Of a stretch of 64,000 bases of DNA, positions 1 through 17,300 are shown in pieces (the first letter of the stretch is position 1; the number at the start of each line of letters is the position of its first letter). Source of the DNA: Elusimicrobiota bacterium. Lineage in GTDB: Bacteria > Elusimicrobiota > Elusimicrobia > F11. The DNA is taken from contig JBGAON010000003.1 in the NCBI GenBank assembly GCA_044221725.1, forward strand, positions 480,001 through 544,000. The letters are read 5' to 3'. The notes under the pieces were generated by a model. The model saw only the letters and a program-made list of their open reading frames with translations. It was not told the DNA's origin and did not search any database. The translations under genes and the position numbers were made by a program.

Positions 1-871
1 CACTCCCGCTTCCAGCGCCATAACCGTTTCCGCCCGATCCAGCGGCGCCACTTCCGGAACCCGTGGATCCCGCCGGTCCACCGACCGAAGCGCCGCCCAT
101 CGCCAATCCTCCGCTCGAACCGCCGCCGTGCGACGAACTACTGCCCGAGAAGCCGCCGCTTGATGCGGATCCTTTCGGCGCAAAAGCCTTTGTCTGGAGT
201 GCCGGCCCGGATCCGGGCCCGCCGCTCAACGAGCGCACGGCTGAACTTGTTTTGTTTCCGGTCTCGACCGGAATCGCGTTCACGTTCACCAATTGATCTT
301 TCGCGTTCGAGTCGATGATCTTAAACGGCATATCTTTCTGCGCGACTTTGAATTTGTTTTCCTTGAGATTCGGTTCGGACTTTTGGAAATTTCCTTTCGA
401 AGGCTGAACCAGCACCTGCTGCGTTTGTCCTTTCGAAATATCGAGTTCGTCCTTCTTCGCAAGGCCGTCGAAACCTTTCTTTTGAAACGGTTTGTCCGTC
501 AAAGCGTCGGGTTTGTTCCAGGCCGGCTTGGCCGGTTCAACGGGAACCGCTGTTTGTTGGCCCATCGCGACTTCGGATTTCGCGCCCGGGCGTTCGCCCC
601 TCACCAACGATTTCACCTTCGAGAAGAAACTTTGTTTTGGTCCGGTTCCACCGCCGGCCGGCTCGTAGCTCGGGATGTCGGACCGGAAATCCACATTCAC
701 CAGCATATCACCCATTCCACCATTCCCACTTTCGGGCAGCGACAGCATTCCGCCTTTCCACAGCAACAACGTTGAGTGCACCGCGAGCGCGAATACCAAG
801 CACGCGAAATCACGGCCCGAGAAATCAAATTTTATGCCGGTGGATGGAATTCCGTTAATGGGTTGCATCAT
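1..871 (-). CDS. TonB/TolA-family energy transducer (partial, runs off left edge)
   Basis: Not in the ORF track; translated by hand. ATG ATG CAA CCC at 871 overlaps the exbD stop. N-terminal TM segment with His (FACLVFALAVHSTLLLW), then a Lys/Pro-rich and a Gly/Ser-rich linker, open to position 1. Lies directly downstream of exbB-exbD-exbD. Confidence 0.75.
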   Translation of the reverse strand, partial: MMQPINGIPSTGIKFDFSGRDFACLVFALAVHSTLLLWKGGMLSLPESGNGGMGDMLVNVDFRSDIPSYEPAGGGTGPKQSFFSKVKSLVRGERPGAKSEVAMGQQTAVPVEPAKPAWNKPDALTDKPFQKKGFDGLAKKDELDISKGQTQQVLVQPSKGNFQKSEPNLKENKFKVAQKDMPFKIIDSNAKDQLVNVNAIPVETGNKTSSAVRSLSGGPGSGPALQTKAFAPKGSASSGGFSGSSSSHGGGSSGGLAMGGASVGGPAGSTGSGSGAAGSGGNGYGAGSGS

Positions 872-1295
872 TGGTTGGCTCCAATTTCCCCGCTCGTTGC
901 GTGGTGGCAATGGCGACCGCGCGATTTCCGACATACCGGTTGACGGTGCGCAGGAAATTTTCGACGTTTCCGTACGGCAAATTCTTGTCGGCGCGCACGA
1001 TCACAACAATGTTTTCTTTTCTATCGCGCAGCTTTGCAACAAGTGCACGTGGCAAGTCTTTCCATTGAACGATATCCGTGTCGATCGAAATTGAACCATC
1101 GGATCCGAGACTTACGGTAATATTTTGATCTTTGGTTTCTTTGGTCATCGCTTCCGGCAACTCCACCGGAATATTCGGCAAATTCATGATGGGGCTCATC
1201 AACAGAAGAATCACGAGCAATACCAGCGTTACGTCGATCACCGGAATAATGTTGACGCCCGAAATGGCTTCTTCGCTTATGTTGACACGTTTCAC
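855..1295 (-). CDS. exbD: ExbD/TolR biopolymer transport protein
   Basis: INIIPVIDVTLVLLVILL TM motif with the conserved Asp; C-terminal VIVRADKNLPYG. Confidence 0.9.
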   Translation of the reverse strand: MKRVNISEEAISGVNIIPVIDVTLVLLVILLLMSPIMNLPNIPVELPEAMTKETKDQNITVSLGSDGSISIDTDIVQWKDLPRALVAKLRDRKENIVVIVRADKNLPYGNVENFLRTVNRYVGNRAVAIATTQRAGKLEPTNDATH

Positions 1296-1756
1296 GATGC
1301 GCCATCCTTGTGCGGCACGAGCGACAAACTTACGGCCCCGCTCTGACGCACGAGATCCAAAATGCGGACCACGTTCTGATATTTCACGTCGGGTTGTGAC
1401 GAAATTAAGACCGTTCGGTCTTTTCTACCACCGAGATTTTGCTGCAAAACGCGGAACAATTCGTATTCGGTAGCGATGGCCTGACTATTAACGGTGAATC
1501 CATTGCTTTTAATATCCACGAAGATCGGTTTCTCTGAAATTGTGGAACTGGACTTTGAAGCGACGGCTTGTGCGGCTTGAACCTGAATCATTGATTGAAG
1601 CGCCATCGGAGAAATGACCATCAATATGATCAGCAATACCAAGGTCACGTCCGCCAATGGGACGATGTTGACCTCGTTTAATTCGCCGTCTTCTTGGTTA
1701 GCGGAGCTTTGCACGGATTTCGCTCGGTTTCGGCTGCGCTGGCTTGTCGCCCGCAT
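1292..1756 (-). CDS. exbD: ExbD/TolR biopolymer transport protein (second paralog)
   Basis: EVNIVPLADVTLVLLIILMV motif; VLISSQPDVKYQNVVRILD. Confidence 0.9.
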   Translation of the reverse strand: MRATSQRSRNRAKSVQSSANQEDGELNEVNIVPLADVTLVLLIILMVISPMALQSMIQVQAAQAVASKSSSTISEKPIFVDIKSNGFTVNSQAIATEYELFRVLQQNLGGRKDRTVLISSQPDVKYQNVVRILDLVRQSGAVSLSLVPHKDGAS

Positions 1757-2378
1757 CTTCGCCGCCGTAGATTTGAATAATCAGTTCGTGCGCCGCGTTG
1801 TTCAAACGAACACCAATGCCGCGCATCTTGATGGTGAAGTAGTTGTAGAAAAGAGCTGCAGGAACGGCGACGATAATGCCGGCCGCCGTGGAAACAAGCG
1901 CTTCCGATATACCCGCCGCGACGATGTTTGCGCCACCCGATCCCGAACGTCCCAAATCGGCGAACGCTTGCATAATTCCGGTGACGGTTCCCAAAAGGCC
2001 AACAAGAGGCGAGATAAAAGACAGAGTTGAAAAGAGTCCAAGGCGTTTCCGCAGTCTTTCGATTTGGCTTTCTTTCGCGATTTGAACGAGATCTTCGTTA
2101 TCAGCGCGGGATAGATGCGTCGAGCTGATGGCAACCAAGAACGTTTGTGCAAAAACATTGTTCGACTGTGCGCACAGGTTTCGTGCGTCGTGCAAGCGGC
2201 CCGAGGCCACGCTGTTCTTCACGCGGTGCCAAAACTCTTCGCTCCACCCGGTGTGAGCCATGAAAAACCAGAGGCGTTCCAGCAAAAATGTCATCAGCAA
2301 CACCGAGAAGAAAAGAAGTGTTGTGATGATCGCTGGATTTACTTTCAATATTCCCATGAATCCCAATTCTTTTAACAT
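1698..2378 (-). CDS. exbB: ExbB/TolQ/MotA proton channel protein
   Basis: SPLVGLLGTVTGIMQAF and GISEALVSTAAGIIVAVPA signature; three hydrophobic segments; GGAGG RBS upstream. Confidence 0.92.
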   Translation of the reverse strand: MLKELGFMGILKVNPAIITTLLFFSVLLMTFLLERLWFFMAHTGWSEEFWHRVKNSVASGRLHDARNLCAQSNNVFAQTFLVAISSTHLSRADNEDLVQIAKESQIERLRKRLGLFSTLSFISPLVGLLGTVTGIMQAFADLGRSGSGGANIVAAGISEALVSTAAGIIVAVPAALFYNYFTIKMRGIGVRLNNAAHELIIQIYGGEDAGDKPAQPKPSEIRAKLR

Positions 2379-2404
2379 GTTGTTCCCTCCAGTTTTTTTC
2401 GAAA

Positions 2405-5386
2405 TTATTTGGCTTCGGATCGCAGGGTCTTCGCGCGATCGATCGCCGCTTGTTTCCAGTCCGGGTTTGAGCTGTTGCTCGCTATGTCTTCGTACACCGA
2501 TATGGAATCATCAACTTTGCCAAGTTCCTGATACAGTTCCGCGAGAGTGACCATCCCCGTCAGTCGCACCTCGTTCGAGCGTGGACCTTTCGCGCGGAGT
2601 TTTTCGTACATCGCGAGTTCTTGGTTCGGCATCTTCATGATCCGGTAAAGTTTTGCTTGAGCGACATACGAAGTGAACGATTCGTCGGCGTCGTCGGGAA
2701 TCATCTGGTAACTCTTTAGCGCCACTTCATAATTTTTCATTTCCTCGTTCGCGGCGCCCATGTCGAGAAGTACCTTGTTCCGTTGGGGATCGTTAGGAAA
2801 GCGTTCCAGGAAGCGTTGTTGCGCGGCGAGGGCTTGGGCCGGTTGATTCATCTTTTTGTAGCAAAGAGGAATGTTAACGAGAGCGTCACGCGCCAATCCA
2901 CCGTTGGGATCGGCTTCGAGCGTGTCGTTAAACGTAATCACCGCTTCGCGATAGTTCTCAACCTGGAAGTAGCTCACGCCCAAACGGAACAGCGCTTGCA
3001 CGCGGTTCGGACTGTCCGGGAAATTTAGCACGAAGTTTTTGTAAGCGGTAACCGCGTTCGGGTATTCTTCGAGAGCGAAGTGCGACTCGGCCATATAATA
3101 ATAGGACTGTGCCGCTTGTTTTGATTCCGGAAATTCTCCAACGAGCTTGCGGAAATATTCAAGCGCTTGTTTGTATTGCTTGTTGTTGAAAGCATCGGCA
3201 CCCGATTGCCAATAAATGTCGGCCGTGAGTTTGCTCTTTGGGAATTTTTCGGTCAAGCTCGCGAGATCACCCGATCCTTTGGCTTCGCGGTAATGCGCCA
3301 TTTGCAAAAGTTCAAGCACGTCCTTTGCTTTCGGATCTTTCGGATAATTGTTCAAGAATTCTTGCAGTCGTTTGGATGCCAATTCGAACTGGCCCTGGTT
3401 GTAATAGCACTGCGCAATTTGAATGCGCGCGTCTTTCACGTTTTCGGATTGCGGATATTTGTCGATCAACAATTGGAATTGTTTGCCGGCCTCGTCGTAT
3501 TTTCCAAGACCGAATTGGGTTTTCGCGATTTCGTACACCGCTTTTGGCGCGAGCGGATGGTTCGAGTAGTTGGTCGCCAGTTTCTGCCAGCGCGCAATTG
3601 CTTCGGTGTAATATTCGAGACGATAGAAGCTTTGCCCGCCCTGAAATAACGCGTCGGGAACCATCGGATCGTCCGGGTAACGGTTCACGAACTCGTCAAA
3701 ATACCCCATCGCCTTGTCGTACTTCTTTTGCGTAAAAAGAACTTGAGCGGTATCCATGAGCACGGATTTCTTAACTTCTTTGCTCTTGAGATTCTCCGCC
3801 ATCGCCAACGCCCGCTCGTGCGCGACACCGGCTTCGTCAAATTGTCCTTTTCGCGCCAACGAAGCGGCGACGCCGAGCATCGCGTAGGCCAGCTTCGGCG
3901 TATCTTTATAATTGTCGACGATCAGTTGATAGTTGCGTTGCGCGGCATCAAATTGATTGAGTGCGTAGTAGGCTTCGGCCACCCACAAATAAGTTTCGGC
4001 CTGCCAACGCGTGGGGCTTACGGGCGCTACTTTTAATTGCGAGTTGAGAGACGTCACAATCTCCGCCAGCTGGTTGTTTTGGAAATAAGACGTCCCCATC
4101 AAGTAGAGTGCTTTTTCCGAATGGATTGAATTTCCAAACTGATCCAAAACGATTTGATACTCGGCGTTCGCTTCCACGAATTTCTTCATGCGTTGCAGGC
4201 AGATTCCCTTGAGAAGGTGGGTTTTGGCAGCCAGTTCTCCCCACGGATATTCTTTGAGAAATTTCTCCGCGCGCGCAACGGCCGTATCGTCTTGTTTCTG
4301 CTCGGCCATGCACCAAACAATCTTGTATTGCGAATCCATGCGCAGTTCGTGCGCTTCAGAAATTTGGCTGAAGAACGAAATCGCTTTCCCGTAGTCGCCG
4401 AGGCGCAGCGCCATTTCTCCGAGCATGTAGATGCCGTACGGCAAATTTACATCGTCTTCGAACCCTCTGACGAGTTCTTCCCACTTAAGACCGGCTTCCT
4501 GAAAACGGCCCAGATGAAATTGAATGCACGCCATCCGGTGCAACGCGTACGGGCGAAGTGGGCTCAATTTGAATTTGTCGTAGACCTTGCGAAAGCTGTC
4601 ATAAGCCAAATTCAGTTCGTTTACTTTGTAATAGGCTTCGGCCATCTGGAGTTGGGCTTTGTCGGCCCAGAATCCGGTCGGATCTTCCTCATAAACGTCC
4701 TTAAACATTTGGGACGCCGCAATTGTTTGTCCAAGCATGCGCAAAACGACGCCATGATAATAACGGGTCCCCAAATCGTCTTTAATCAGTGAAAACATAT
4801 CGAGCGCGTCTTGGAGTCGGTTGCGCTCCATGTACAATAGGCCCAGCGGTGTGACCGCGGCCGGATTTGATTTGTACTTCGGGTACGATTGCAGAAGTTC
4901 GACCAGCATGTTTTCGGCTTTTTCATGGCTGTTTAAAGCGATCAGCGATAACGCCCAGCCAAGCAATGCTTCGGATCGCAAAATCTTCGGTGCTTTGTTT
5001 TTGACGACCGTGAAGTGATCGATCGCGTTCAAATACTTTTTCATGTTGAATTCGCAATGACCAAGTCGCAACTCCGCGTTCATCGCTTCGTAGGTGCCGG
5101 AGTATTTTTTCGTAACAACTGTATATTCGTCAGCGGCTTCCGGATATTTCTTCAGGGAAAATTTTATTTCGCCGAGCGCGAAACGCGCTTGTGCCGCGAG
5201 ACGGTGGCCCGGGAATGTTTTTAAGAAGCCTTCGTATTCTTGCGCAGCGCTATCGAGGCGACCATTTTGGAAAGCAAGAGAGGCGATTTTGAATTGTTGG
5301 AGAGGATCAACCGAAACTGCAAAAGATGGTACGGCGCTATTTGCCACGAGGCAAACGATGCCTAAGAGCTGAGCGAGTTGTTTCAT
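2405..5386 (-). CDS. Large secreted tetratricopeptide-repeat protein (CpoB/BamD-like TPR pairs)
   Basis: Signal peptide followed by a continuous array of TPR helices with recurring '(Y/F)P.S..A..A.Y..G' turns over ~990 aa. Confidence 0.88.
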   Translation of the reverse strand: MKQLAQLLGIVCLVANSAVPSFAVSVDPLQQFKIASLAFQNGRLDSAAQEYEGFLKTFPGHRLAAQARFALGEIKFSLKKYPEAADEYTVVTKKYSGTYEAMNAELRLGHCEFNMKKYLNAIDHFTVVKNKAPKILRSEALLGWALSLIALNSHEKAENMLVELLQSYPKYKSNPAAVTPLGLLYMERNRLQDALDMFSLIKDDLGTRYYHGVVLRMLGQTIAASQMFKDVYEEDPTGFWADKAQLQMAEAYYKVNELNLAYDSFRKVYDKFKLSPLRPYALHRMACIQFHLGRFQEAGLKWEELVRGFEDDVNLPYGIYMLGEMALRLGDYGKAISFFSQISEAHELRMDSQYKIVWCMAEQKQDDTAVARAEKFLKEYPWGELAAKTHLLKGICLQRMKKFVEANAEYQIVLDQFGNSIHSEKALYLMGTSYFQNNQLAEIVTSLNSQLKVAPVSPTRWQAETYLWVAEAYYALNQFDAAQRNYQLIVDNYKDTPKLAYAMLGVAASLARKGQFDEAGVAHERALAMAENLKSKEVKKSVLMDTAQVLFTQKKYDKAMGYFDEFVNRYPDDPMVPDALFQGGQSFYRLEYYTEAIARWQKLATNYSNHPLAPKAVYEIAKTQFGLGKYDEAGKQFQLLIDKYPQSENVKDARIQIAQCYYNQGQFELASKRLQEFLNNYPKDPKAKDVLELLQMAHYREAKGSGDLASLTEKFPKSKLTADIYWQSGADAFNNKQYKQALEYFRKLVGEFPESKQAAQSYYYMAESHFALEEYPNAVTAYKNFVLNFPDSPNRVQALFRLGVSYFQVENYREAVITFNDTLEADPNGGLARDALVNIPLCYKKMNQPAQALAAQQRFLERFPNDPQRNKVLLDMGAANEEMKNYEVALKSYQMIPDDADESFTSYVAQAKLYRIMKMPNQELAMYEKLRAKGPRSNEVRLTGMVTLAELYQELGKVDDSISVYEDIASNSSNPDWKQAAIDRAKTLRSEAK

Positions 5387-5426
5387 GTTTTCTGTCCCCT
5401 CTTCTTCAATACTGCGACAGTACGGC

Positions 5427-6917
5427 TTACTTCGTAGGTTCGGTTACCTCGGGCTGCGCTTCCGCGGGTTGCGTCGCTTCAGCGGGCGCGGCTTCTGGTT
5501 GCGTTCCTACACTGCTATTGTCTTGCTTGGCCGGTGTTTCGACCGGAGCTGAAATTGGTGTTGCGCTCATCGCTTTTTCAGCGGCCGCATCTTCTTTGGT
5601 TTTTGCGGTCAGTTCTGTTTCACGCGCGCCGTTCAGTTGAAGGCTCATATCGATCACTTCTTTGCGATCGTGATCTGGCAACGCGAGTTTCAGGTCGCCG
5701 TCGTTCTCCCATGTCTTTCCGTTCTTGTAATTGACTTGGAAGTGATAGGCATACATTCCGTCAACAACCGGTTCGCCGATCGCGTTTTTCGCGTCCCAAA
5801 CAATTTTCTCTGGCGGACGCAAGTCGCCTTCCAGGCGGCGCACTTCTTTGCCTTCGGCGTTGTTGATGGAGAGACTCCAACGAGCGACCGTTTGGGCTGG
5901 CACGTCGGTCTTAAACGCTACCTGGTTTTCAAAACCACTCAACGGATACACCGCACGACCCTCTTTCATTGGAGGTTCTATGCCCGTTTTATAAATGTTG
6001 TGCCATGCCCACGTGATGGACACTTTATTAAAGGCTCCAAGATCGGTATCGCTAAACGCATAGTCAATTCTGAACTTTTTGATATTCGCTCCTACACCAA
6101 GAGTGTAACTGCGATTCGCGTTGTAGCCAGTCCTTAACGAAAAAAATCTGTTCACGGCCCATTCGGCACCGGCGGCGTACTGGTTATCTTCATGACTTAC
6201 TCTGCTCATGTCGAAGGTCAGCGTGAGTCGATTTCGGAAAACGTCCGTGGCCGCTCCAAATCGGGTCACCGGGCGAAATACATCTTCTTCGGTTTGCAGT
6301 TTGATGCCCGGCTCGTTGAAATTCGCGAACATCGCGCCAACGCTCAAAAACCGAAACGGTTTGTACATGAAGCCCGCGTCCATCGCGAGCGTGTTGCCAG
6401 AAAGTCCACCCACCTTTTGTTGAATGAATTTCGCGTTCACGCCCGCGGAAATACGCTGCGTGAGCTTGTGCGCATACGAGGCCAGCACCGCATTGTTGCT
6501 CAAAGCCCCGTTCGAATCGGTTTCATTGTTGAAATTGTCGCGCAACGAGTATCCGTTCGAGAGCAACATTGCATCGGACAACGCCAATGCACCCCATTTA
6601 TCGCCCAGGGGATTGGCTGTCGCAAAATAGTTGTAGCTCGAATCCAAATAAAGGGGAGCGTGCATCAGCATCAGTTGGTGTTCGTCCATATACGCTAGAC
6701 CGGCGGGATTGAAGTAAGGGGCGGACGCGTCATCGGCCAAACCCGTGAAAGCTCCGCCCATCGCCAACGAACGAGCACCCGCACCAATGTTGAAAAGGTC
6801 GGAGGCTTGGCCATAGGTTGCGGCCGCGTTTAGAGAGCTTAGATGGCTGGCTAATGTCAGCACAATCAAGCTTGCTTTTAGCACTGTTTTTGGCGTTAGG
6901 GATTTCATTGCGTTCAC
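5427..6917 (-). CDS. PorV/PorQ (UPF0164)-family outer-membrane beta-barrel with C-terminal FlgD-Ig-like domain and Ala/Pro/Glu/Thr tail
   Basis: GAGARSLAMGGAFTGLADDASAPYFNPAGL N-terminal signature; amphipathic strands ending LRTGY...RIDYAF; then INNAEGKEVRRL...IVWDAKNAIGEPVVDGMY. Confidence 0.85.
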   Translation of the reverse strand: MNAMKSLTPKTVLKASLIVLTLASHLSSLNAAATYGQASDLFNIGAGARSLAMGGAFTGLADDASAPYFNPAGLAYMDEHQLMLMHAPLYLDSSYNYFATANPLGDKWGALALSDAMLLSNGYSLRDNFNNETDSNGALSNNAVLASYAHKLTQRISAGVNAKFIQQKVGGLSGNTLAMDAGFMYKPFRFLSVGAMFANFNEPGIKLQTEEDVFRPVTRFGAATDVFRNRLTLTFDMSRVSHEDNQYAAGAEWAVNRFFSLRTGYNANRSYTLGVGANIKKFRIDYAFSDTDLGAFNKVSITWAWHNIYKTGIEPPMKEGRAVYPLSGFENQVAFKTDVPAQTVARWSLSINNAEGKEVRRLEGDLRPPEKIVWDAKNAIGEPVVDGMYAYHFQVNYKNGKTWENDGDLKLALPDHDRKEVIDMSLQLNGARETELTAKTKEDAAAEKAMSATPISAPVETPAKQDNSSVGTQPEAAPAEATQPAEAQPEVTEPTK

Positions 6918-6920
6918 CTA

Positions 6921-9900
6921 TTATTTCGCCACCAAAATCTTCGTTTTCATCCTTTGACCGGTGGCACCGACTTTAACGACCACTACATATCCTCCATTTG
7001 CAACGGTCGTGCCGTCATCGTTAATACCGCGCCAAATCACACGGTTATCCGTGCGTGCTTCGCCACCTTGCTGACCAGCATCAATTGTCTGGTGCCAAAC
7101 TTTTTGACCAAACAAGTCATAGATGTCCACGTCCACGCTGGACGCCGATGCCAACGGATACTGAATCGTTATGAAGTTGTCCCCGTTCGAACTCTTCGGA
7201 TTAAACGGACTCGGGTATCCGACGAGCTTGTCCGATAGTTGATAGGTAAGAATGTCGAGTGTGTGCGGCCCACCGTTCGTAACCAACTCACTTACTTTGT
7301 TCACACAGGTCGGATCGACATTCGGGTAGCACACGTCGGAATACCAACGGAAATCGTATGTCTTTGTGGTCGAGAAGCCTGTTGCACCGCTGCTCGGGTT
7401 GTAGGTCTGATACGGGCCACCATCAAGGCTGTAATAGGTGGACACAACACCACCGGCGCTCACCTGCAAACCCGTGAGATCGATAAACCAAGGCGTGTTC
7501 ACGGGGATGCGATTTCCGCCCAAGGTCAACGCACGTCCCGGGCCACCGTTGATACCGAGAATGTTCACCTTAAATTCTTTCGCGAATCCACGATTCGGAC
7601 GATCCAAATCAAGAATGCGAACCGTGATGAGCCCGTTCGCGTTCGGCAAGGCGCTGAAGGTCACTTTCAGTTCGCCGTTCGCATCGGTAAGCGCCACGAG
7701 TTCGTTGCTTTCGCTGTTCATCCTCAACTGACCAGGAATGTCCGCCGATAGCGAAACCTTCTGGTTTGGAATGAGGTTTCCGAACGTGTCCTTGAAGGTC
7801 AGCGTCTCGTCGTCACTCGTTCCGGCCAAAAACTGAATCGGGTCTTTAACGTCAACGGTGACGAGTGCGCCCGGATTGATTTTGATGGCGGCTCCCGAAA
7901 AATAGTATTGCTGAGTCGGAACCGGTGGTGGGTCAAAAACCGTGGTGTTGTCGGCCAAGCGCAAATAGATCGTTTCAGCGCGATTGTATGTGGCGGACAC
8001 CGTGATTTTTCCGTTCACGACGTTCACGAGGTTTGGCACGAACGTGCCGCCCGCTGGAAGTCCCGACACCGACACAAACGCTTCGAGCGGAAGGCCCGTG
8101 CGATTCATGTTTTTGATTTCGGTTCCGGTGTCGGAATCGATCGCTTGGATCGTAAAGTTAAAAAGTTTGTTCACTTCGCTTTCCGCCGGAATATCGCGGA
8201 ACTGATAGGTGACCGCGCGCGGAATAAAACTGATCACATTGCTCACGCTTTCGTTGTCTCCGGTCAAATCTTTCACGCGCAAACGAATGCCTTCCGCAAT
8301 CGTGTACCGTTGATTTGTAATGGTCACGTTGCCCGCGACAAGGTTGGCTGAAGTGACATCCAATGTTCCGGTCGCTTTCGACCCGTCCACTTGCAGCGCT
8401 TCAATCGTGATGGGGCCAAAGGCCGGAACCACCGCTCCAGCACTGTTGCGCAACGAAATGGTCATGCTGAAGGCTTGGCCGGTAAACTGTGTGGCTGGCA
8501 CAGCGATATCGAAGAAAGTTCCGATGACAGGAACGTCGACTTTTTGCGATACGATCGTTCCGTTGTTGTCGTCGCGAACGATGACTGGAATCGTGCCTGC
8601 TTTATTGAATGTAATGGCGGTCGCAGTTTGACCGCCCGCCAGCGGAGCATCCTGCGGGACTGGCGCATTTAAGAATGCGAGCGCGTCCGTCGATTCAAAA
8701 TGGATTTTCCCACCGTTGAACGAATCGACGGTGTTCGCGAATTGGTCGGTTCCTTTCACTTGGAACACCACCGACAGCTTTCGGTCTTGCTGATTTGGCG
8801 TGCCAGTTTTTCCGGTCGGGTTTGCCGTTACCCCCGGCGTGTGAGTCTCGCCGGGCGCGATGATAATGAGTTTTTTGTAGGAATCCGGACTCAATGTGAT
8901 TGCGTTGCTGTTCCGAGGAACAATTGTCCATCCCGCCAAATTAAGATTCGATGCTTTCAGTACGATCGCTTCGGCTTTTGTGTAAGCGACGTCGATCGCG
9001 CAAATACCGTTCACGAGGCTCGCGCTTGAGACGGACAACGTTCCGTCTGCCGTCGGAAAAAGAAGTGATGTCGCTTCCAATCCGACCGTGTGGTTGTAAA
9101 GTGGGCTTTTGATCAGCGTGTCGGTGCTTCGGTCGCGCAGTTCGATGCGTGCACGGAATGTGCTCGGTGGGCCTACGATACCGGTGGCCGGGACAGAGAC
9201 GGTGTATTTTAGGCCGCTCGGTTGAACATCGATAAGGTTTGAGAACGCGATACGACCGAAGTTGTCACGGACTTTGATTTTAATTCCCTCTACATACTGG
9301 TAGTTCAGATCATTAATTACGACGACGCCGTTGTTCGTCACAAACTGGCGTTCGCTTCCATCGGGTGTGAACTGCCCTGTTGCTGGCGTACCGTCGGGCA
9401 ACACCGCGCTCAGGAAGACCGTTTGGCTGTATCCGTTCACCGGAATTCCATTCATCTGGAGCGAAATGGTAACAGCACCGAAATTTGAGCCCGCGACCGC
9501 TGTCGCCGGAGATTGAATGTTGTAGGTCGGGCCCGGAACGACGTGGATCGTCACTTGTCCGAACGTCTTCGTGAGATCGTTCTGGTCAAGAGCTTTAAGC
9601 GTGTAAAAGCCTTCGCTACCGAACAGGACGCTGCGCGTGTGGGTTCCGGTTTGGATCGTGCGAGGCGTGGGGCCGTTCTGCGTGTTATTGGGCGGTAAAT
9701 AAATTGTGTTTGTTGGTGACGAAACGAACAGAACATCACCGCCGGAAAATTGCACCGGGTTGTAATAGTTATCGACGGAGAGAATGGTCACGGTGTTTGC
9801 CACGCTTACCATTTGATCGGATGGCGGGAACCCCGCTTTCTTTCCGCCGGTCGCTTCGTTTCCCGGGTCCGGCAATTCGCCGGGCGCGATAATTTGCAAG

Positions 9901-12791
9901 CGCGAGTACGGTCCTGCGAGCCCTTGAATTGTGCTCGAGCTGGCCGTCACACCGCCCGCGGTAATATCCGTTGCGGTCAGTGTGTGAATCACTGCGGCTT
10001 TCAAAACAAGCGTTGTACTGAATTCGCCGAGCGCCAGATCTCCCTGCGCGGGGCTAAATTGCGCGTAGGAATCGCTCGCGAAGGCGACTTTCTGCGACGA
10101 GATTGTTGTTAATTGGTTGAAATACTGATCGCAAGCGACGGCGCGAACCGTGATGGCCGTTCCAACCGAGCGTGGAGCATTTGCGCCAGTTTTTCCCCAT
10201 GTTGTTCCGGGCGCCGCTACCTCGTCGGGACCCAGCAGCAACAATTTTTTATATCCGAGCGAATTCGGAAGAACCTTAAATGAATTGCTCGTGCTGGTTG
10301 TGCCGCCCCATTGCATGACGATTTTGACGGCGTTGTTCGCCGCGAAGCAGGTGATCGGACCATTGTAGATACCGCCGGACATCGATACGGTCGCTGGAGA
10401 CATCGTGCCCACGCCGGTTGTTGCCGACAAATTAATGGAATTGTTGAAATTGTTGATGATCTGATTGAACTGATCTTCTGCTTGAATCAAAACGTTGAAC
10501 GGAACGCCCGCCTCTTTGTCGGTATTGCTAGCGAGAGTGAAACGGAAGTGATCGACGTTTCCCGGACCTACCGGAATGGAAACACTCTGGAAAAGATTGG
10601 CGTTTCCGGCATCTTCGACGCGCACTGCTGAATTTTCGCCGAGCGACACGCTAACCGTGCGGTTGCTGGCGGCCATTGAAACGGATTGGCCCAACGTAAT
10701 TCCGCTGATGAAACTTGCAGCGTTGCTTGGCGTGATAGAGAAGCGCGTATTGGCGTACGGCGGATTCTGTAGCGGATTCCAGTATTGATCGGTGAGATAC
10801 GCGGTCATGTTGAACGCGATACCAGCGCCTTGCGTTGACGGCACTCCTTCTTTTCCATTTGCGAAAAATGAACCGGGGCGTAATGTTTCGCCGGGCGCTT
10901 CAAACGCGACACGATTGTAGGCGCCTGCGGAGACAGTTACCGTCGAGCTCAAGAAATCTTGCGGGGAAAAATTTGTGGTGGCGCGAAATTGCTTGTTGAG
11001 GCCCGCGGTACGCATGCTCACGCGGAAAGACGTGTCAAACGGCGGTGTCTGATACGTGAGTTCACCCCCGATCGGGAACGTGACGGTCGGATCGGCTGGG
11101 TGCGTCGCCGTGATATATGAGCTCGGAACCAAGCTCGACAACGTAATAGGAGTTCCCGTAATCGCAGGACCGGTAACCACATTCCAGTGCGCATCGGTCA
11201 AGCGAGCTTCGACAACCAACTGGTCGCCGGCCACGATGGTCGGCGGCGTGCCGCTGTTGCCGGGATACGTTCCAGGCGTAAACGTTTCTCCGACGAGCAC
11301 GCCGGGTTTCCCCAAAATTGTCATATGGACTTTGCTGAGGGCACCGGTCCGGACTTCGAATTGGTTGCTGTACGTTCCGACGCCAAATTGATCCTCAAAG
11401 TGCAAATCGACAACTTGGCTGCGTTTCGTAACGTTCAAATTAACGGTCGCGATACCGGCGACGAAGTTCACGACGTTGTCCGGAACGATTGTGGACGGGT
11501 TTGTATCCGCCCAAAGAACATTTTCTTGCACCGGCGGGCCGCTGATGCGCGCCGACAATTTTGCGCCCGGAAGAGCACCGTAGAGACTGGTGAGCAGAAT
11601 TCCACCGGACCGCGCTTCGATTTGAATCGTGATGACATCATCGGTTGTGAAGATCTGCCCCGGATTTGGTTGCACCGTAAACGCGTATGTGTTCGTCGCA
11701 CCGGGTGCCACCGGAACCACGGATTGATCCGCTTGGGCGGACTGTCCATTTGGGGTGGCTGTAATCGTACGCGTTCCGTTCGTGTTAAAAACAAAGCGGT
11801 TCGGTGCCGGTTGGCCACCGGCGATTTGTAGCGGCGGCGTTGTGAGACTTTGGGTGGGCGGTAAATAACTCGGCGCCACGGTGTCCGTCGGTTCCGACGA
11901 TGTGAATCCCATGCTGAGACTGACCGCTGAATAAATAGGATTGTAGAAAGCATCGACCGGCCAAATGGTGACAAGTCCTACCGGAACCGCGGCGACCTGA
12001 GTTCCAACCGTTCCACTTTTACCGATGCCGGGCGTCAGCGTTTCTCCTGGAAAAAGCATTGTGACTTTGGAATAAGCCCCCGGCGTTAAATTGAACAATG
12101 GACTCGTGTACGTTGGCGCGGGCACAGGGCCCGGCACGTTGAAACCGGTCAATCCGGAAATTGTCAGTGAAACTTTGTTGTTCATATCGCCGGCTTTTGT
12201 TGTGACGATGGCGGTGGCGATGCCATTTCCCGTCACGAAAGCGTTGCCGTCCACCGGTGTCAAAATACCCAAAGCGCTGCTGTCGACGATTTGAACCGGG
12301 TCCTCGAAATAAGAAACGAAGATTCCGTTCGCATCGAGCGGCGTGATCTGAATCGTGTAAGAAGTGTTTGCCGTAATCGACGGAATGGTGGGCGTGATCT
12401 GAAAGGTTGTCGGATACCGTTGCAGCGAGGCAGAAACCGTCGTGAAAATTGAGGGATCGTTTTTGTTTGTCACCGTCAGGTTTACATTGCCGGGAGCCTG
12501 ATGAAAGCGAATCGTGAAAATAAGTTTTCCGGTCGCATCCACTTTGTATTCGTTGGGCCCCACTTGCACACCGTTTCCGACGAAGATATCGCACGAAGCC
12601 AACGCGCCCGACGTTTGCAAAAATACGTTGTCGAAAAGCGCGGGTGAGGAAACGATTTGCAATTGATAGTCGCGCCCTTGAACGAGATTGAGCGGACGCC
12701 CATCGGTGCGCGTGATCGTGTAACCGGCGAACGCCGAGCTGACCGCCGACAGGAGGATTCCTCCAACAAAAGATAGAAGTTTGCGGTTCAT
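6921..12791 (-). CDS. Giant secreted Ig-repeat protein (1956 aa) with T9SS-like/FlgD C-terminal sorting domain
   Basis: Signal peptide; Thr/Val/Gly-rich beta repeats; C-terminus YPSPFNP...IYDLFGQKV...WRGINDDGTTVANGGY...KTKILVAK. Confidence 0.85.
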   Translation of the reverse strand: MNRKLLSFVGGILLSAVSSAFAGYTITRTDGRPLNLVQGRDYQLQIVSSPALFDNVFLQTSGALASCDIFVGNGVQVGPNEYKVDATGKLIFTIRFHQAPGNVNLTVTNKNDPSIFTTVSASLQRYPTTFQITPTIPSITANTSYTIQITPLDANGIFVSYFEDPVQIVDSSALGILTPVDGNAFVTGNGIATAIVTTKAGDMNNKVSLTISGLTGFNVPGPVPAPTYTSPLFNLTPGAYSKVTMLFPGETLTPGIGKSGTVGTQVAAVPVGLVTIWPVDAFYNPIYSAVSLSMGFTSSEPTDTVAPSYLPPTQSLTTPPLQIAGGQPAPNRFVFNTNGTRTITATPNGQSAQADQSVVPVAPGATNTYAFTVQPNPGQIFTTDDVITIQIEARSGGILLTSLYGALPGAKLSARISGPPVQENVLWADTNPSTIVPDNVVNFVAGIATVNLNVTKRSQVVDLHFEDQFGVGTYSNQFEVRTGALSKVHMTILGKPGVLVGETFTPGTYPGNSGTPPTIVAGDQLVVEARLTDAHWNVVTGPAITGTPITLSSLVPSSYITATHPADPTVTFPIGGELTYQTPPFDTSFRVSMRTAGLNKQFRATTNFSPQDFLSSTVTVSAGAYNRVAFEAPGETLRPGSFFANGKEGVPSTQGAGIAFNMTAYLTDQYWNPLQNPPYANTRFSITPSNAASFISGITLGQSVSMAASNRTVSVSLGENSAVRVEDAGNANLFQSVSIPVGPGNVDHFRFTLASNTDKEAGVPFNVLIQAEDQFNQIINNFNNSINLSATTGVGTMSPATVSMSGGIYNGPITCFAANNAVKIVMQWGGTTSTSNSFKVLPNSLGYKKLLLLGPDEVAAPGTTWGKTGANAPRSVGTAITVRAVACDQYFNQLTTISSQKVAFASDSYAQFSPAQGDLALGEFSTTLVLKAAVIHTLTATDITAGGVTASSSTIQGLAGPYSRLQIIAPGELPDPGNEATGGKKAGFPPSDQMVSVANTVTILSVDNYYNPVQFSGGDVLFVSSPTNTIYLPPNNTQNGPTPRTIQTGTHTRSVLFGSEGFYTLKALDQNDLTKTFGQVTIHVVPGPTYNIQSPATAVAGSNFGAVTISLQMNGIPVNGYSQTVFLSAVLPDGTPATGQFTPDGSERQFVTNNGVVVINDLNYQYVEGIKIKVRDNFGRIAFSNLIDVQPSGLKYTVSVPATGIVGPPSTFRARIELRDRSTDTLIKSPLYNHTVGLEATSLLFPTADGTLSVSSASLVNGICAIDVAYTKAEAIVLKASNLNLAGWTIVPRNSNAITLSPDSYKKLIIIAPGETHTPGVTANPTGKTGTPNQQDRKLSVVFQVKGTDQFANTVDSFNGGKIHFESTDALAFLNAPVPQDAPLAGGQTATAITFNKAGTIPVIVRDDNNGTIVSQKVDVPVIGTFFDIAVPATQFTGQAFSMTISLRNSAGAVVPAFGPITIEALQVDGSKATGTLDVTSANLVAGNVTITNQRYTIAEGIRLRVKDLTGDNESVSNVISFIPRAVTYQFRDIPAESEVNKLFNFTIQAIDSDTGTEIKNMNRTGLPLEAFVSVSGLPAGGTFVPNLVNVVNGKITVSATYNRAETIYLRLADNTTVFDPPPVPTQQYYFSGAAIKINPGALVTVDVKDPIQFLAGTSDDETLTFKDTFGNLIPNQKVSLSADIPGQLRMNSESNELVALTDANGELKVTFSALPNANGLITVRILDLDRPNRGFAKEFKVNILGINGGPGRALTLGGNRIPVNTPWFIDLTGLQVSAGGVVSTYYSLDGGPYQTYNPSSGATGFSTTKTYDFRWYSDVCYPNVDPTCVNKVSELVTNGGPHTLDILTYQLSDKLVGYPSPFNPKSSNGDNFITIQYPLASASSVDVDIYDLFGQKVWHQTIDAGQQGGEARTDNRVIWRGINDDGTTVANGGYVVVVKVGATGQRMKTKILVAK

Positions 12792-13156
12792 GGCCGCACC
12801 TCCACCGCTTCTTCCACATATCTTTGGGTGTCGGGATTTTTGTCATCCGTCAAAACGCAAACCGTGTAAGAACCGATGAACGCAGCGTGCAACGTAATTT
12901 TTCCAATGCCGTCACGCAGGGTAACGCGGTTCGGTTCACCAACACCACGACGCCGCAATTCAACAAGGACTGTTTCGTTCGTCTTGAATTTTTTTCCGTC
13001 TTTGAGCGCGGTTATTTCCACCGGAAGATCGGATTTAAGTGAGATCGATTTCGGAACCGCAACTTTAAAGCTTTGAATTTCGCTGGCGTGGATCGAGAGA
13101 ATTCCAAAAAAAACGACGGCCGCGCACGTAGCTATAATTTTTGTGAATCGTTTCAT
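12788..13156 (-). CDS. Small secreted protein, probably a single Ig-like domain; first gene of cassette-1 operon
   Basis: AAGGAGG RBS before ATG AAA CGA (MKRFTKII) at 13156, preferred over the track start at 13177; signal peptide; stop overlaps the next start (ATGA). Confidence 0.7.
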   Translation of the reverse strand: MKRFTKIIATCAAVVFFGILSIHASEIQSFKVAVPKSISLKSDLPVEITALKDGKKFKTNETVLVELRRRGVGEPNRVTLRDGIGKITLHAAFIGSYTVCVLTDDKNPDTQRYVEEAVEVRP

Positions 13157-13283
13157 CGTTGCGTCCTCCTTGCACATTTCTCTCGATCGTTCGAGTAAAT
13201 CCCTGAAAACCTTAAATCACAATGTGTTTTTGGTCACAGGTTTGCCTTCCAAATGTCACCGAAACTTGTGACATAAGCTCGTG

Positions 13284-13299
13284 TGCAATGTTCATGCCA
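13284..13299 (-). promoter_or_regulatory. sigma54 (-24/-12) promoter
   Basis: Minus strand TGGCATG-AACA-TTGCA matches TGGCACG-N4-TTGC(A/T) with exact spacing, ~130 bp upstream of the cassette-1 operon. Confidence 0.7.
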
Positions 13300-13408: not shown

Positions 13409-14332
13409 TTAGTGATCGCGGGTGACGACGAAATCGGTGAGGAGGTGCAGAACCTGGGCGGATGTGCCAAACGAGGCGAGAGCCGCATGCGCTTTTTTTG
13501 CAAACTTCAGAGCATGCAATTTCGATGAATCGAGTCCGAAAATTTCTGGGTAAGTGAGCTTTTTATTCGCACGGTCACTTCCTCTCTTGCCGAGTTTCAC
13601 CTTGTCCCCTACCACGTCGAGAATATCGTCGGTAATCTGAAAAATGAGACCCAGGCAATGCCCGTAGCGTTCCATGGCGGACACTTGTTTTCTGTTTCCC
13701 CCAGCCACAAGGGCGCCGGCCATAAGGCTTCCTTGGATGAGCGCCGCGGTTTTTTTGCGATGAATATAATCGAGTAATGCTTCCGGCGATCGAAATTCGG
13801 AATCTTTAAGATTTTTCCACCGGCCCTTGTCCGCTTTGATATCGGCAACTTGACCGCCAACCATGCCCCGGCTTCCGGCCGCCTGCGCGACGATCTTCAC
13901 GGCCTCGAGTGCACGCCGCGGCTCAATATTTTTTTTCTGCGAATTCTGAGCCAAAAGCTCGAATGCCCGAGTAAGCAGCGCGTCTCCGGCGAGAATTGCA
14001 ATGTCTTCACCGTAGACTTTGTGGTTCGTCGGCTTTCCGCGGCGAAGGTCGTCATTGTCCATGGCCGGCAAGTCATCGTGGATGAGCGAATACGTGTGAA
14101 CGAACTCCAGCGCACATGCCGTTTCTATAACGTCCGATGCTTTTCCCCCGCAGATTTCCGCGGCAGCGATAACGAGGATGGGGCGTAAGCGTTTTCCTCC
14201 GGCCATAACGGAATAGCGCATCGCATCGTGAATGATTGCGGGTTTGTCGGTGACACGGGGCAAAAAACGCAGCAGCGCCGTGTCGATGACTTTTCCATGC
14301 CGCCGAAAATAGCGGTCGAGCTCGGGTGTCAC
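13409..14332 (-). CDS. ispA: Farnesyl/geranylgeranyl diphosphate synthase
   Basis: GGKRLRP, HTYSLIHDDLPAMDNDDLRRGKPTNH, GQVAD, KKT, FQITDDILD motifs. Confidence 0.93.
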   Translation of the reverse strand: MTPELDRYFRRHGKVIDTALLRFLPRVTDKPAIIHDAMRYSVMAGGKRLRPILVIAAAEICGGKASDVIETACALEFVHTYSLIHDDLPAMDNDDLRRGKPTNHKVYGEDIAILAGDALLTRAFELLAQNSQKKNIEPRRALEAVKIVAQAAGSRGMVGGQVADIKADKGRWKNLKDSEFRSPEALLDYIHRKKTAALIQGSLMAGALVAGGNRKQVSAMERYGHCLGLIFQITDDILDVVGDKVKLGKRGSDRANKKLTYPEIFGLDSSKLHALKFAKKAHAALASFGTSAQVLHLLTDFVVTRDH

Positions 14333-16038
14333 AGAACTGACTCGTAGATATGTTTTGTGTCGGCCACCGTACGTCGAACGTCCACTTGTGAGGTGACAGC
14401 AATAGCCGCCCGCACGATTTTGACCGCCGCACTGGTATCGCTCATCTTTCGATTAAAAGCTTCAAGAGCCTCGAGAAGGCCGAGGGCTGTCGGTTCGCCT
14501 TTAACGTACGGGATATAGAAGCCATTAACGTGGTCGGCTTCTTTCTCGATTCCTTCAAAAAAAACAAATTCCGGTACGGCACCATCGGCCGTGGCCAGCA
14601 CGGCGGCTCCGTTCATCTGCGCTTTCATGAAGCCGGTGGCCGATGCTTCGCGCGTGTCATCGGCCAGCATGATCGTACCGTCGACACCCTGATAAATCGT
14701 CGGCGCGTCCCACACGTTGAAGTTATCGATTGTAACGATTCGGTTCTGAAGACCTGGATCTTTCTCGAGGATATCCAACAAATCATAGACGATATCTTGT
14801 GCGTGATTGTCTTGCTGGTGCACCCGGCCGCCCACGAGAATCAACACATTCAGCGCATTGAATCGCGCCCGCCAATCGGGGTTCTTCAGCATTTTTACGA
14901 GCAGGTCCAGTCGTTTGTAGGGCGTGATACGGCGCGTCCATGCGATCACAAACCGATTTTCCGATTCCTTTGCCCAGTTCGGCCAAAGGTGACAGTGACG
15001 CCACGCCCAATCGAGCAGCGCTTTCTTTTTGGATTTTTTGATTTCAAGAAGCTGGGCATCGGCCAGCTGATCCGGGTTTGCGAATTCGGCAATCTGCCAA
15101 TCGGCCTTCCGTACGCCGTTCGTCACGTACTGAATTTTGTTTTTGAATTCGTGAAGCGACGGCATCGCTTTCATCACATCGCCGTGTTTCTTTGCGACAC
15201 CAAAAACAGCGTCGCAGGTGCCGACGAGCATGCTCGTAACATCGAGGCTTTTTTTCTGATCGTTCCAGCCCGGTTTGTTCAGGTAAATTTTTGGATCAAT
15301 TTTGACCAAATCCAGTGTGTGCTGATCCCAAATTGGATGCGCGTATTCCAACGGGGTGTGGTCGTTGAATATATATTTCGTGTGTGAGAAAAATGAATCG
15401 TTTTGGAACGAGTCTATGGCAAGTCTATCGTGTGCAAATATTGTCGGCGTCTCGCTAAGAACAATGATGTTCGGTTTCTCATTTAATTTTTTGCACAACG
15501 CCAAAGCACCGCGACCGACGAGCCAACTTTGTTTCAATCGCGTTTCGTGCGCCCACACGTGCGGATTTGTTGCCGTAAGATTGGTTGGCGCGTCTTTTGG
15601 CCCTGGATACACGATATCCGTGATGTGCGGAGCCGCGAGAAAATAAACCGTGGATTTTCCGTAATTCAGCTTCCAGACCGTGACATCAACGAGCTGGCCG
15701 TCGAACATTGGGAGCGCAAAGCCGAGCGACGTCGGTGTCAGCGAGGCGCGCAACGCGTTTCCAACGTTGCGCTTTTGAAGATTGATTTGTCCCCATTCGT
15801 GCCAGGCTTGGGCCCAAACGGTGTCGTATAACAGGCTTACGCCGACGACATTTAATCCGGCTTCGCCTTGCTCAAAAATGCGTTCGCGGAGCAAAGGACC
15901 GATGCCGCCCACCGATGTCGACATGGCGCACTCACGCGCTTTTTCGGCACCAAACCGCTTCGCGATATCATCGAGAAAAAATTTCGGAAGCGCCATTTCC
16001 ATGGCAACTTCTACAATCAGCGTCTTGTCGTCCAACAT
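14329..16038 (-). CDS. Alpha-glucan (glycogen/maltodextrin) phosphorylase, GT35, short divergent form
   Basis: GGIG, HTP, VTNGV, RRITPYKR and REASATGFMKAQMNG (PLP-lysine motif, cf. EASGTSGMK). Confidence 0.8.
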   Translation of the reverse strand: MLDDKTLIVEVAMEMALPKFFLDDIAKRFGAEKARECAMSTSVGGIGPLLRERIFEQGEAGLNVVGVSLLYDTVWAQAWHEWGQINLQKRNVGNALRASLTPTSLGFALPMFDGQLVDVTVWKLNYGKSTVYFLAAPHITDIVYPGPKDAPTNLTATNPHVWAHETRLKQSWLVGRGALALCKKLNEKPNIIVLSETPTIFAHDRLAIDSFQNDSFFSHTKYIFNDHTPLEYAHPIWDQHTLDLVKIDPKIYLNKPGWNDQKKSLDVTSMLVGTCDAVFGVAKKHGDVMKAMPSLHEFKNKIQYVTNGVRKADWQIAEFANPDQLADAQLLEIKKSKKKALLDWAWRHCHLWPNWAKESENRFVIAWTRRITPYKRLDLLVKMLKNPDWRARFNALNVLILVGGRVHQQDNHAQDIVYDLLDILEKDPGLQNRIVTIDNFNVWDAPTIYQGVDGTIMLADDTREASATGFMKAQMNGAAVLATADGAVPEFVFFEGIEKEADHVNGFYIPYVKGEPTALGLLEALEAFNRKMSDTSAAVKIVRAAIAVTSQVDVRRTVADTKHIYESVL

Positions 16039-16086: not shown

Positions 16087-17193
16087 TTAGCGCAGGTGAT
16101 CCCAATAGGATTCTTCTTTCATTGGAAGGATAAGAATTACCCGGTCGTTTGGAACGTCGAAGACCTCAGAAATTTTTTCCTCTTTTCGTTCGGGGCCAAA
16201 CCACGTGGAAAGCGTCAGCATCTGAGTGTTGCCGAGTTCTCCGAACGGCGTGATCGCGTAGTCGAGACTAAATTGGCGAAATTGAAGTCCGAGCCCGCCG
16301 GTCAGGCCGCTCACATTGGCGAGATTTCCCCGGTTTGTTTCGCTGGTCTGGTTGTTCGTGATACTCGTGGCGAGCTGCGCCAAATAACCAGCGCGCAACA
16401 TCACGTTGTTCGTGGCAAAAAGCTGCGTGCCAAGCGCTAATTCCGTTTGATGCGAATACGGCTTGTGATGGACGTCCGCGAGCAGAACGATCGGGTTCGA
16501 AAGACGATACGCGGTGCCAACCGACAAGGTCAGCGGCAACGCGTATTGTTCATCCACAAATTTCATTTGCGGCCCCAAATTTCGCACGCTCATTCCAAGC
16601 GACATCCGGTTAATTGGCGTCGCCGATAAGAATCCCAAGTCAACCGCGAATCCATCCGCTTCATGGCCCGCTAACTCCTGTCGAATCACTTTTAACTGCG
16701 TTCCCATCTGCATGCGCCCAAAGTTGTGCGCGTAGGCTGCCCCCAGCGCAAGATCAGAGGCCGAAAGCGAACCGGTTTTGTTGCGCTGATCATCGTAGCG
16801 GTCCTGGTCCGTGTAGGACAAATGAATCAGATCGAGACCCCAAGAGCTGGCGCCGGATCGGCTGGGAATAATGGCGCCCAAATGGTCGAGGTTCGTTTCG
16901 GAAAATTGATCTTGATGGGAAAGGGAAAGGCCCAGGGTTGGGTGCGGAAGCTGAGTTGCGCCGCGAAGATTGACAATCCCGGCCGGGTTCCAGTTCAGCG
17001 CGTTGATACCGTGGGCGAGGGCGGTGTAAGCCTGTCCCAATCCTGCCGGCTCCGCTCCAATCGGAATTTTTAGAAAATCGGCGCTCGTATCCACCCCGGC
17101 ACGAGCCACCGACAAAAGAGGAAAGACAGGCGCCAAAAAAATCGCCGCCCGCGCAACCCGCCAGAATCTATGCCGAACCGAATCCCGTTTCAT
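16087..17193 (-). CDS. PorV/PorQ-family outer-membrane beta-barrel (cassette 2)
   Basis: SADFLKIPIGAEPAGLGQAYTALAHGINALNWNPAG; C-terminal LDYAITPFGELGNTQMLTL. Confidence 0.87.
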   Translation of the reverse strand: MKRDSVRHRFWRVARAAIFLAPVFPLLSVARAGVDTSADFLKIPIGAEPAGLGQAYTALAHGINALNWNPAGIVNLRGATQLPHPTLGLSLSHQDQFSETNLDHLGAIIPSRSGASSWGLDLIHLSYTDQDRYDDQRNKTGSLSASDLALGAAYAHNFGRMQMGTQLKVIRQELAGHEADGFAVDLGFLSATPINRMSLGMSVRNLGPQMKFVDEQYALPLTLSVGTAYRLSNPIVLLADVHHKPYSHQTELALGTQLFATNNVMLRAGYLAQLATSITNNQTSETNRGNLANVSGLTGGLGLQFRQFSLDYAITPFGELGNTQMLTLSTWFGPERKEEKISEVFDVPNDRVILILPMKEESYWDHLR

Positions 17194-17230
17194 CTTGAAC
17201 GCCCGCCAAGCCGTGGACGGTGTTACAAGA

Positions 17231-17275
17231 ATGTTACGTGCTCTTCGATTAAAACCGCTTTAACTTCAGATTAAG
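17231..17275 (-). promoter_or_regulatory. Putative OmpR-family (PmrA/QseB-like) triple box plus -10
   Basis: Minus strand CTTAAT-N5-GTTAAA-N5-TTTAAT, 11 nt, then TAACAT; upstream of the PorV gene at 17193. Confidence 0.6.
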
Positions 17276-17300
17276 TTTTAGAGAAGATTCGCAAACGGGG

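Follow-up and report, generated by a model that had tools for sequence, protein, structure and literature searches.

A conserved operon joining a Ton-type ion motor to a PorV-family barrel and a tailed cargo in Elusimicrobiota and other phyla

The locus at the left end of the stretch analyzed here raises the question of what a Ton-type ion motor is for when it shares an operon with a large tailed cargo protein, a PorV-family barrel and a long tetratricopeptide repeat (TPR) protein. The stretch (the window hereafter; 64,000 nucleotides, G000:C5:480001-544000) comes from the genome of an uncultured Elusimicrobiota host, 2.82 Mb in size and 94% complete, and the operon runs in the order cargo, PorV, TPR, ExbB, ExbD, ExbD, TonB and a further protein designated gene 8. 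Comparison with other genomes identifies it as a real, cross-phylum envelope machine that is apparently undescribed. As to its function, which we infer, the chances appear about even that the motor exerts force on one dedicated pair of PorV carrier and adhesin, and not on all such secretion. Two features of the sequences point to a dedicated partner: the unique conserved immunoglobulin (Ig)-like tail of the operon PorV, and a cargo repeat shared with one other cargo of the host.

A sequence-only reading of this DNA had proposed that the genes from cargo to TonB work together, and their order holds up in other genomes: the linkage of cargo, PorV, TPR gene and motor is conserved, far beyond chance, across several phyla of uncultured bacteria. 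Within a sample of 201 Elusimicrobiota genomes (these are related, hence counts are given without statistics), the 41 best matches to gene 8, its own excluded, were fetched except for G003:C59; ExbB, ExbD and TonB lie ahead of gene 8 in 39 of the resulting 40 loci, and a long TPR gene is found upstream in 37 of the 39, the two others being interrupted by contig ends. A wider scan with the TonB C-terminal domain, using one genome per species, gave 397 relatives; among the best 80 loci, which were examined, the exact order cargo-PorV-TPR-ExbB-ExbD-ExbD-TonB-gene 8 is present in 26 (3 of them in genomes already counted) and the cargo-PorV-TPR start in 34. Labels among the exact-order loci include Krumholzibacteriota, Eisenbacteria, WOR-3, Stahlbacteria and TA06, and the eight-gene order with one extra gene occurs in Cloacimonadota. 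It should be noted that one locus (L079) is labeled Saccharimonadaceae while its gene sizes are as in the Eisenbacteria loci, and this label may be wrong. Rearranged cassettes, with a tailed gene and a PorV gene still beside the TPR gene or gene 8, were observed in L024, L031, L035, L094 and L193.

In the host, the open reading frame (ORF) list places the whole run on the minus strand at the positions given by the sequence-only reading, with all families confirmed (table 1). The seven genes that it named from cargo to TonB are present; the small secreted protein that it placed first, a 129-aa ORF, has no counterpart in the 40 relative loci and no paralogue elsewhere in the host genome, and gene 8 has to be added at the other end. 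Intergenic distances along the run are -4, 3, 40, 26, -59, -4, -80 and 3 bp, of which the overlaps of -59 and -80 are possibly an artefact of early starts chosen by the ORF finder. The TonB-like protein, cut by the left edge of the window, is complete at 457 aa and carries a TonB_C domain, and no receptor, tolB or pal follows downstream: gene 8 is succeeded, 123 bp on, by an unrelated aminotransferase-like gene and other unrelated genes. A promoter scan, a weak test, found nothing promoter-like in the gap separating porV from the TPR gene that would indicate independent expression, and promoter and terminator sites over the locus were fewer than in shuffles. Rfam gave 0 matches on the 18-kb locus. 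Three metatranscriptome runs and one unlabeled run yielded short low-depth contigs, unable to show transcription or co-transcription.

Table 1. Genes of the minus-strand run, with window positions unless marked as genome coordinates.
Feature	Position	Strand	Remarks
129-aa ORF, hydrophobic N-terminus	12788..13177	-	First of the run, not a conserved member
Cargo, 1956 aa	6921..12791	-	Signal-like N-terminus, 7 Ig-like repeats (~100 aa), C-terminal FlgD/CHU_C-like sorting tail
PorV-family barrel, 496 aa	5427..6917	-	C-terminal FlgD-Ig tail, predicted periplasmic, related to gene 8
Secreted TPR protein, 993 aa	2405..5386	-	YbgF/BamD-type repeats; predicted periplasmic scaffold
ExbB/TolQ-family motor subunit, 226 aa	1698..2378	-	Family models and tree
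ExbD/TolR-family subunit 1, 154 aa	1292..1756	-	Membrane Asp kept
ExbD/TolR-family subunit 2, 146 aa	855..1295	-	Membrane Asp kept here
TonB-like force transducer, 457 aa	1..934 (full G000:C5:479561-480934)	-	440 bases beyond the left edge
Gene 8, 314 aa	G000:C5:478613-479557	-	Wholly outside the window, 3 bp past the TonB-like gene

The components of a Ton motor are present: ExbB, ExbD with its membrane Asp, and TonB with anchor His and TonB_C domain. ExbB scores 98 bits on MotA_ExbB, the two ExbD subunits 77 and 67 bits on the ExbD model, and the TonB-like protein 25.2 bits on TonB_C (cut-off 24.6) and 30.7 bits on TIGR01352 (cut-off 27.1); the latter protein has an N-terminal anchor with a conserved His53 and a long Gly/Ser-rich linker before the TonB_C domain. 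Its relatives keep the anchor His and have a distinctive C-domain. In 6 relative loci (L011, L013, L016, L019, L045 and L046) the membrane Asp of the second ExbD is replaced by Asn, Thr or Ala, whereas the first ExbD retains it; this confinement of the loss to the second subunit is consistent with a mixed dimer, which would allow it. In a tree of ExbB (58 rows) the backbone is unresolved, and we therefore claim no order of events beyond one well-supported clade (100/99), which unites the host's operon with a second cassette in the same genome, the ExbB of the latter grouping with the cargo-linked Elusimicrobiota type.

The operon PorV matches the family model NF033709 (PorV_fam) with 125 bits (cut-off 90), scores 37.8 bits on the strict model NF033710 (cut-off 250) and has no match in the PDB; on sequence grounds it is a member of the family and not a PorV orthologue. 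It contains no cysteine, and is the only one of 27 PorV-like ORFs of the host with an Ig tail; this tail is homologous to the Ig domain of gene 8 (probability 98.3, E 1.3e-14). Close tailed PorV barrels (150 bits or more) occur in 9 of the 201 Elusimicrobiota genomes, identical to the nine with the full operon. The TPR protein matches many TPR models, YbgF/CpoB best, and reaches 84/250 bits on the PorW/SprE model. For gene 8, the predicted structure (pLDDT 81.5) comprises a low-confidence N-terminal region of ~120 aa, a FlgD-type Ig domain and an OmpA/MotB/Pal-like domain; Foldseek matches it to OmpA-like, MotB, TssL and FlgD domains at E 1e-4 to 1e-3, and no OmpA Pfam model scored. A conserved motif in its N-terminal region resembles a TonB box, a lead suggested by visual comparison with one host receptor and with known motifs. 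A predicted complex of gene 8 with the TonB C-terminal domain scored 0.12 (mark 0.32) and is used neither way. In the ESM Atlas gene 8 falls into unnamed clusters with Elusimicrobiota and Krumholzibacteriota commonest, and its close homologues carry the source label Elusimicrobia. Some cassettes without cargo (L040, L042, L045, L115, L127, L129, L146 and L195) have an extra gene of 1,000-1,080 aa between the TPR gene and exbB, made of tandem FlgD-Ig domains and an OmpA domain; Spirochaetota clusters of similar make-up are found in the ESM Atlas.

The cargo belongs to a single family of 450 to 2,000 aa based on one repeat of ~100 aa, present in 7 copies in the host. Its tail is below cut-off on Pfam-type models (CHU_C 18.8 bits, FlgD_ig 23.7 bits) and matches a profile built from the 24 tails of the host genome; a tail profile of the orthologues gives weak matches to FlgD and to PG93, which we take to be PorZ. 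No good Pfam match was obtained with 61 repeat copies, the best being Big_1 in 7 of them. A short WOR-3-type orthologue of 455 aa is predicted to consist of tandem all-beta domains (pLDDT 88), with only unspecific beta-sandwich matches in Foldseek (TM 0.26 or less). A repeat profile made solely from Ton-operon cargos matches 2 of the 11,198 host ORFs: the operon cargo, and a cargo of 7,987 aa with 27 repeat copies that heads a PorV-TPR gene, a FliF-FliG fusion, two unknown genes, MotA and MotB. These two lie nearest to a motor gene among the 24 tailed cargos (5.2 and 8.4 kb; the next at 15.6 kb). In 15 other genomes a repeat-bearing giant was seen by eye on the same strand within ~21 kb upstream of a FliG match, among the matches listed (150 of 793 repeat matches). 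The repeat and either motor co-occur in 51 of 52 genomes; we do not count this as support, since PorV-rich genomes make up 50 of the 52 and relatives are not independent cases.

The host also encodes parts of a type IX-like secretion route. A 1,799-aa ORF (G000:C4:344418-349817) matches the SprA model TIGR04189 with E 1.6e-31 and 108 bits (cut-off 200), and a 21-sequence profile of its family finds SprA as sole PDB match (E 1.8e-36, in collinear stretches); as a single sequence the ORF has no match. These profile results identify it as a divergent SprA homologue. An assignment of this barrel to LptD, considered for its position beside presumed lptF/lptG-like genes, was dropped after the profile matched SprA alone in the PDB. 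The homologue is also present in small genomes that have no more than one or two genes of the PorV family, and usually lies divergent from two such lptF/lptG-like genes. The PorV family has 25 matches to NF033709 in the host, 20 of them above cut-off, and most of the 24 tailed cargos adjoin a PorV gene. No above-cut-off match to GldL, GldM or GldN was found in the host (0 of 14 control genomes positive; very divergent copies are possible, and GldK was outside the search), and the cut-off of GldM_1st was reached in 0 of 75 genomes.

Five genes of the MotA/ExbB family are encoded in the host: one in the operon, one in the second cassette, one in a tolQRA-like set, and those of two MotAB sets. 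The MotAB sets each go with a FliF-FliG fusion (G000:C3:233852-267724 and G000:C5:182557-187338, the latter locus with two MotB genes), and the first of them comes after the 7,987-aa cargo and the PorV-TPR gene; flagellin had no match in the host genome, with positive controls. Among 20 FliG-fusion loci of relatives, chosen by frame length, a PorV gene lies directly before the fusion in all 20, a tailed gene upstream in 18, and MotA-MotB inside the fetched DNA in 8. A split Tol-Pal-like system is found at two sites, tolQ-R-A-like genes at C4:453405-455239 and pal-cpoB-tolB-like genes at C5:317200-319849, with TolB above cut-off at C5:318659 beside the pal- and cpoB-like genes. Four TonB-dependent receptors are encoded elsewhere in the genome, none with a recognized tonB gene alongside.

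A mechanism can be proposed on this basis, in which the motor formed by ExbB, the two ExbD and the TonB-like protein would pull on a dedicated barrel and on the surface filament that this barrel is predicted to carry. The cargo, attached to its own barrel, would pass out by way of the SprA-like pore and remain on the surface, by analogy with type IX secretion, in which the carrier and its substrate have to be pulled off SprA at the expense of energy (PMC10994853) and carriers genetically linked to a cargo serve that cargo (PMC12618676; statements on the literature, here and below, follow the available portions of the cited papers). The two ExbD probably form a mixed dimer inside an ExbB pentamer, and force would be transmitted along the long TPR protein and the predicted wall-anchored Ig/OmpA-like gene 8: the TonB C-terminal domain may grip either gene 8 or the TPR protein, the latter may extend to the periplasmic tail of PorV, and gene 8 would act as wall anchor and possible TonB target. 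Force so delivered would first detach the carrier-cargo pair from the translocon, and would afterwards position, tension or move this pair at the cell surface, the remaining cargo-barrel pairs using a different energy source. The movement of adhesins suggested by the sequence-only reading would fit a single dedicated pair.

Several observations weigh against a dedicated pair. The host's second cassette (C3:282291-289222; TPR-ExbB-ExbD-ExbD-TonB-gene 8) has neither cargo nor PorV, cargo and PorV lie ahead of the TPR gene in only 8 of the 40 relative loci (7, and one across a contig break), and the close tailed PorV is missing from 25 of the 34 Elusimicrobiota genomes with a cassette; the cassette, so often alone, must therefore have a job independent of an adjacent cargo. 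One genome (G009) has two extra pairs of cargo and tailed PorV on short contigs with no cassette seen beside them, and some genomes that lack the cassette encode PorV barrels whose FlgD tails are more distant (69-90 bits). The repeat is not confined to motor loci either: of 14 repeat cargos fetched (12 chosen for their distance from a FliG match, 2 as checks), 9 have no motor gene nearby, 3 have one and 2 are interrupted by contig ends, and in a general library the repeat profile has matches in 12,385 proteins, many of them covering only part of the repeat.

One rival is a Tol-like explanation, in which the motor would load or release gene 8 on the wall and thereby keep the outer membrane in place, the tailed PorV serving as outer-membrane anchor and the cargo as a passenger. 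This agrees with the predicted OmpA/MotB/Pal-like fold of gene 8, with the TPR repeats scoring highest on YbgF/CpoB, with the further multi-FlgD-Ig/OmpA gene of some cassettes, and with the common occurrence of the cassette without cargo, frequently after a gene that we take to be threonyl-tRNA-synthetase-like. The host, however, already has its tolQ-R-A-like and pal-cpoB-tolB-like genes elsewhere, the cassette lacks TolB, gene 8 scores on no OmpA Pfam model, its wall binding being predicted only, and one cargo family kept across phyla is left unexplained; we regard a tether as unlikely. An ordinary Ton system serving the scattered receptors, with the adjacency of cargo and PorV a historical accident, is very improbable. 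The host's receptors do lack a recognized adjacent tonB gene, and 30 of the 34 cassette genomes have receptors, as do all 42 operon genomes of other phyla; but in Elusimicrobiota receptors do not track the cassette, which is absent from 78 of the 108 receptor-bearing genomes, while 4 of the 34 cassette genomes (92-99% complete) show no receptor. The flanks of 120 loci, moreover, contain one receptor-like match (31.6 bits) and one TolB-like match on the other strand, and the fixed TPR, gene 8, PorV and cargo genes would have no explanation.

The sequence-only reading had gone further and let the Ton motor replace GldLM. Part of this stands, as the host has an SprA homologue and no GldL/M/N match and key motor residues are kept, but a general replacement by this motor in the export of C-terminally tailed adhesins is not supported. 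In its general form the cassette would substitute for GldLM/GldKN and eject all carrier-cargo pairs from the SprA-like translocon, cargo and PorV being fixed machine parts like PorU-PorV. This would suit the finding that every one of the 34 genomes with a cassette is PorV-rich (at least 7 PorV matches, with ~10 candidates scored per genome), that none of them is among the 20 listed of 24 SprA-negative genomes, and that SprA-like genes are found in 40 of the 42 operon genomes of other phyla. Across the 201 Elusimicrobiota genomes, however, 177 have an SprA-like gene, 181 the PorV family, 108 receptors and 70 FliG_C, and only 34 the cassette, scored as full-length gene 8 (a cut of about 120 bits over the whole profile; WOR-3 and Eisenbacteria lie outside this comparison). 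The cassette is present in 34 of the 76 PorV-rich genomes and absent from 42. Of these 42, 38 have FliG_C, and 17 that have SprA, and in which all 10 scored PorV candidates match, contain just one ExbD; the cassette is therefore not the universal energizer in Elusimicrobiota. Besides, 20 SprA loci adjoin, as judged from sequence starts, lptF/lptG-like or housekeeping genes and not the cassette, and the form with cargo and PorV is confined to 9 of 201 genomes, so that we consider a general role quite improbable. The action of the motor on one dedicated carrier-adhesin pair can also be placed in a wider and tentative proposal, possible though on the unlikely side: type IX-like display would operate without GldKLMN, and giant adhesin-carrier pairs would plug into interchangeable ion motors, Ton-type or flagellum-free FliF-FliG/MotAB, that move or retract the adhesin, as an unrecognized form of surface motility or prey handling.

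Other tailed cargos are found in the window and beyond it. At 16087-19148 on the minus strand, a 615-aa cargo with tandem repeats rich in Pro, Ser and Gly precedes a 368-aa PorV-family gene (NF033709 140 bits), in an operon without a motor. Between 27571 and 46101, also on the minus strand, are cargo-PorV pairs with cargos of 3,457 aa (28491-38864) and 2,065 aa (39904-46101), with a barrel of 342 aa after each. Two more tailed cargos, of 13,689 and 8,766 aa, are encoded at G000:C3:407319-448388 and C5:215703-242003 and lack the repeat. Just upstream of the operon (14329-16038, minus strand) is a 569-aa ORF of the alpha-glucan phosphorylase family, below NCBIfam cut-offs, which overlaps a polyprenyl synthetase gene.

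Among known systems, the Bacteroidota type IX and gliding machinery comprises SprA, the carrier barrels PorV and SprF/PorP, the GldLM motor and the GldKN track (PMC10994853, PMC12635249, PMC12618676). The SprA homologue, the PorV-family barrels, the C-terminal Ig-like cargo tails and the position of a barrel gene beside most cargo genes are shared with it, as is a carrier that is predicted to be pulled from the periplasmic side. Unlike in type IX secretion, no GldL/M/N match was found and an ExbB/ExbD/TonB-family motor shares the operon of the carrier; this barrel bears an Ig tail and is free of cysteine, whereas SprF and PorG of Bacteroidota are disulfide-bonded to GldK; and the SprA homologue is about 1,800 aa long versus 2,403. 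The Agl-Glt core of Myxococcus (aglRQS with gltC/D/E/G), which delivers force to outer-membrane barrels and a surface adhesin, likewise clusters one TolQ-like and two TolR-like subunits, a TonB-like transducer and periplasmic TPR proteins (PMC3169522, PMC11761067). It differs in having three TPR genes (GltC/D/E) instead of one, and GltA/B/H and CglB in place of a PorV-family barrel, a tailed Ig-repeat cargo and an extra Ig/OmpA-like protein; no FHA domain was found on our transducer, which scores 19.3 bits on the AgmX/PglI C-terminal model (cut-off 40). The TPR-tolQ-tolR-tolR-vWA cassettes, of unknown function, resemble the operon in their TPR gene, tolQ-like gene, two different tolR-like genes and His-bearing transducer, the C-terminus of which is vWA there and TonB_C here (PMC12204202). 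The term PorV is absent from the main text of that paper as available, and its supplements may list motor operons that include this one. Tol-Pal and Ton systems share the motor families, the conserved-His transducer, CpoB-like TPR repeats and a Pal-like fold; the operon departs from them in lacking TolB and a receptor, in its two ExbD and 993-aa TPR protein, and in the separate tol and pal-cpoB-tolB genes of the host. We file it under neither type IX nor Tol-Pal because the energy-chain test and the Tol-Pal test both came out negative. No account of the eight-gene operon, or of SprA/PorV systems in these phyla, was found in the literature covered (few subscription papers, supplements excluded).

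Type IX secretion is described as specific to the Bacteroidota, and the detachment of carriers from SprA as dependent on the GldLM motor and a moving track; an origin within Bacteroidota gliding has been inferred (PMC12635249). The wide occurrence of SprA homologues, of PorV-family barrels and of tailed cargos in Elusimicrobiota and in other phyla, without a GldL/M/N match, bears on such an origin. If the motor acts on the carrier, this would be a new output for TonB-type force transducers, and the eight genes would offer a compact system for testing force transmission to an outer-membrane carrier; motor swapping, too, becomes open to test through the MotAB/FliG locus, in which the cargo repeat recurs. 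Should motors prove interchangeable in this way, SprA-type export would not be tied to the gliding tracks of the Bacteroidota.

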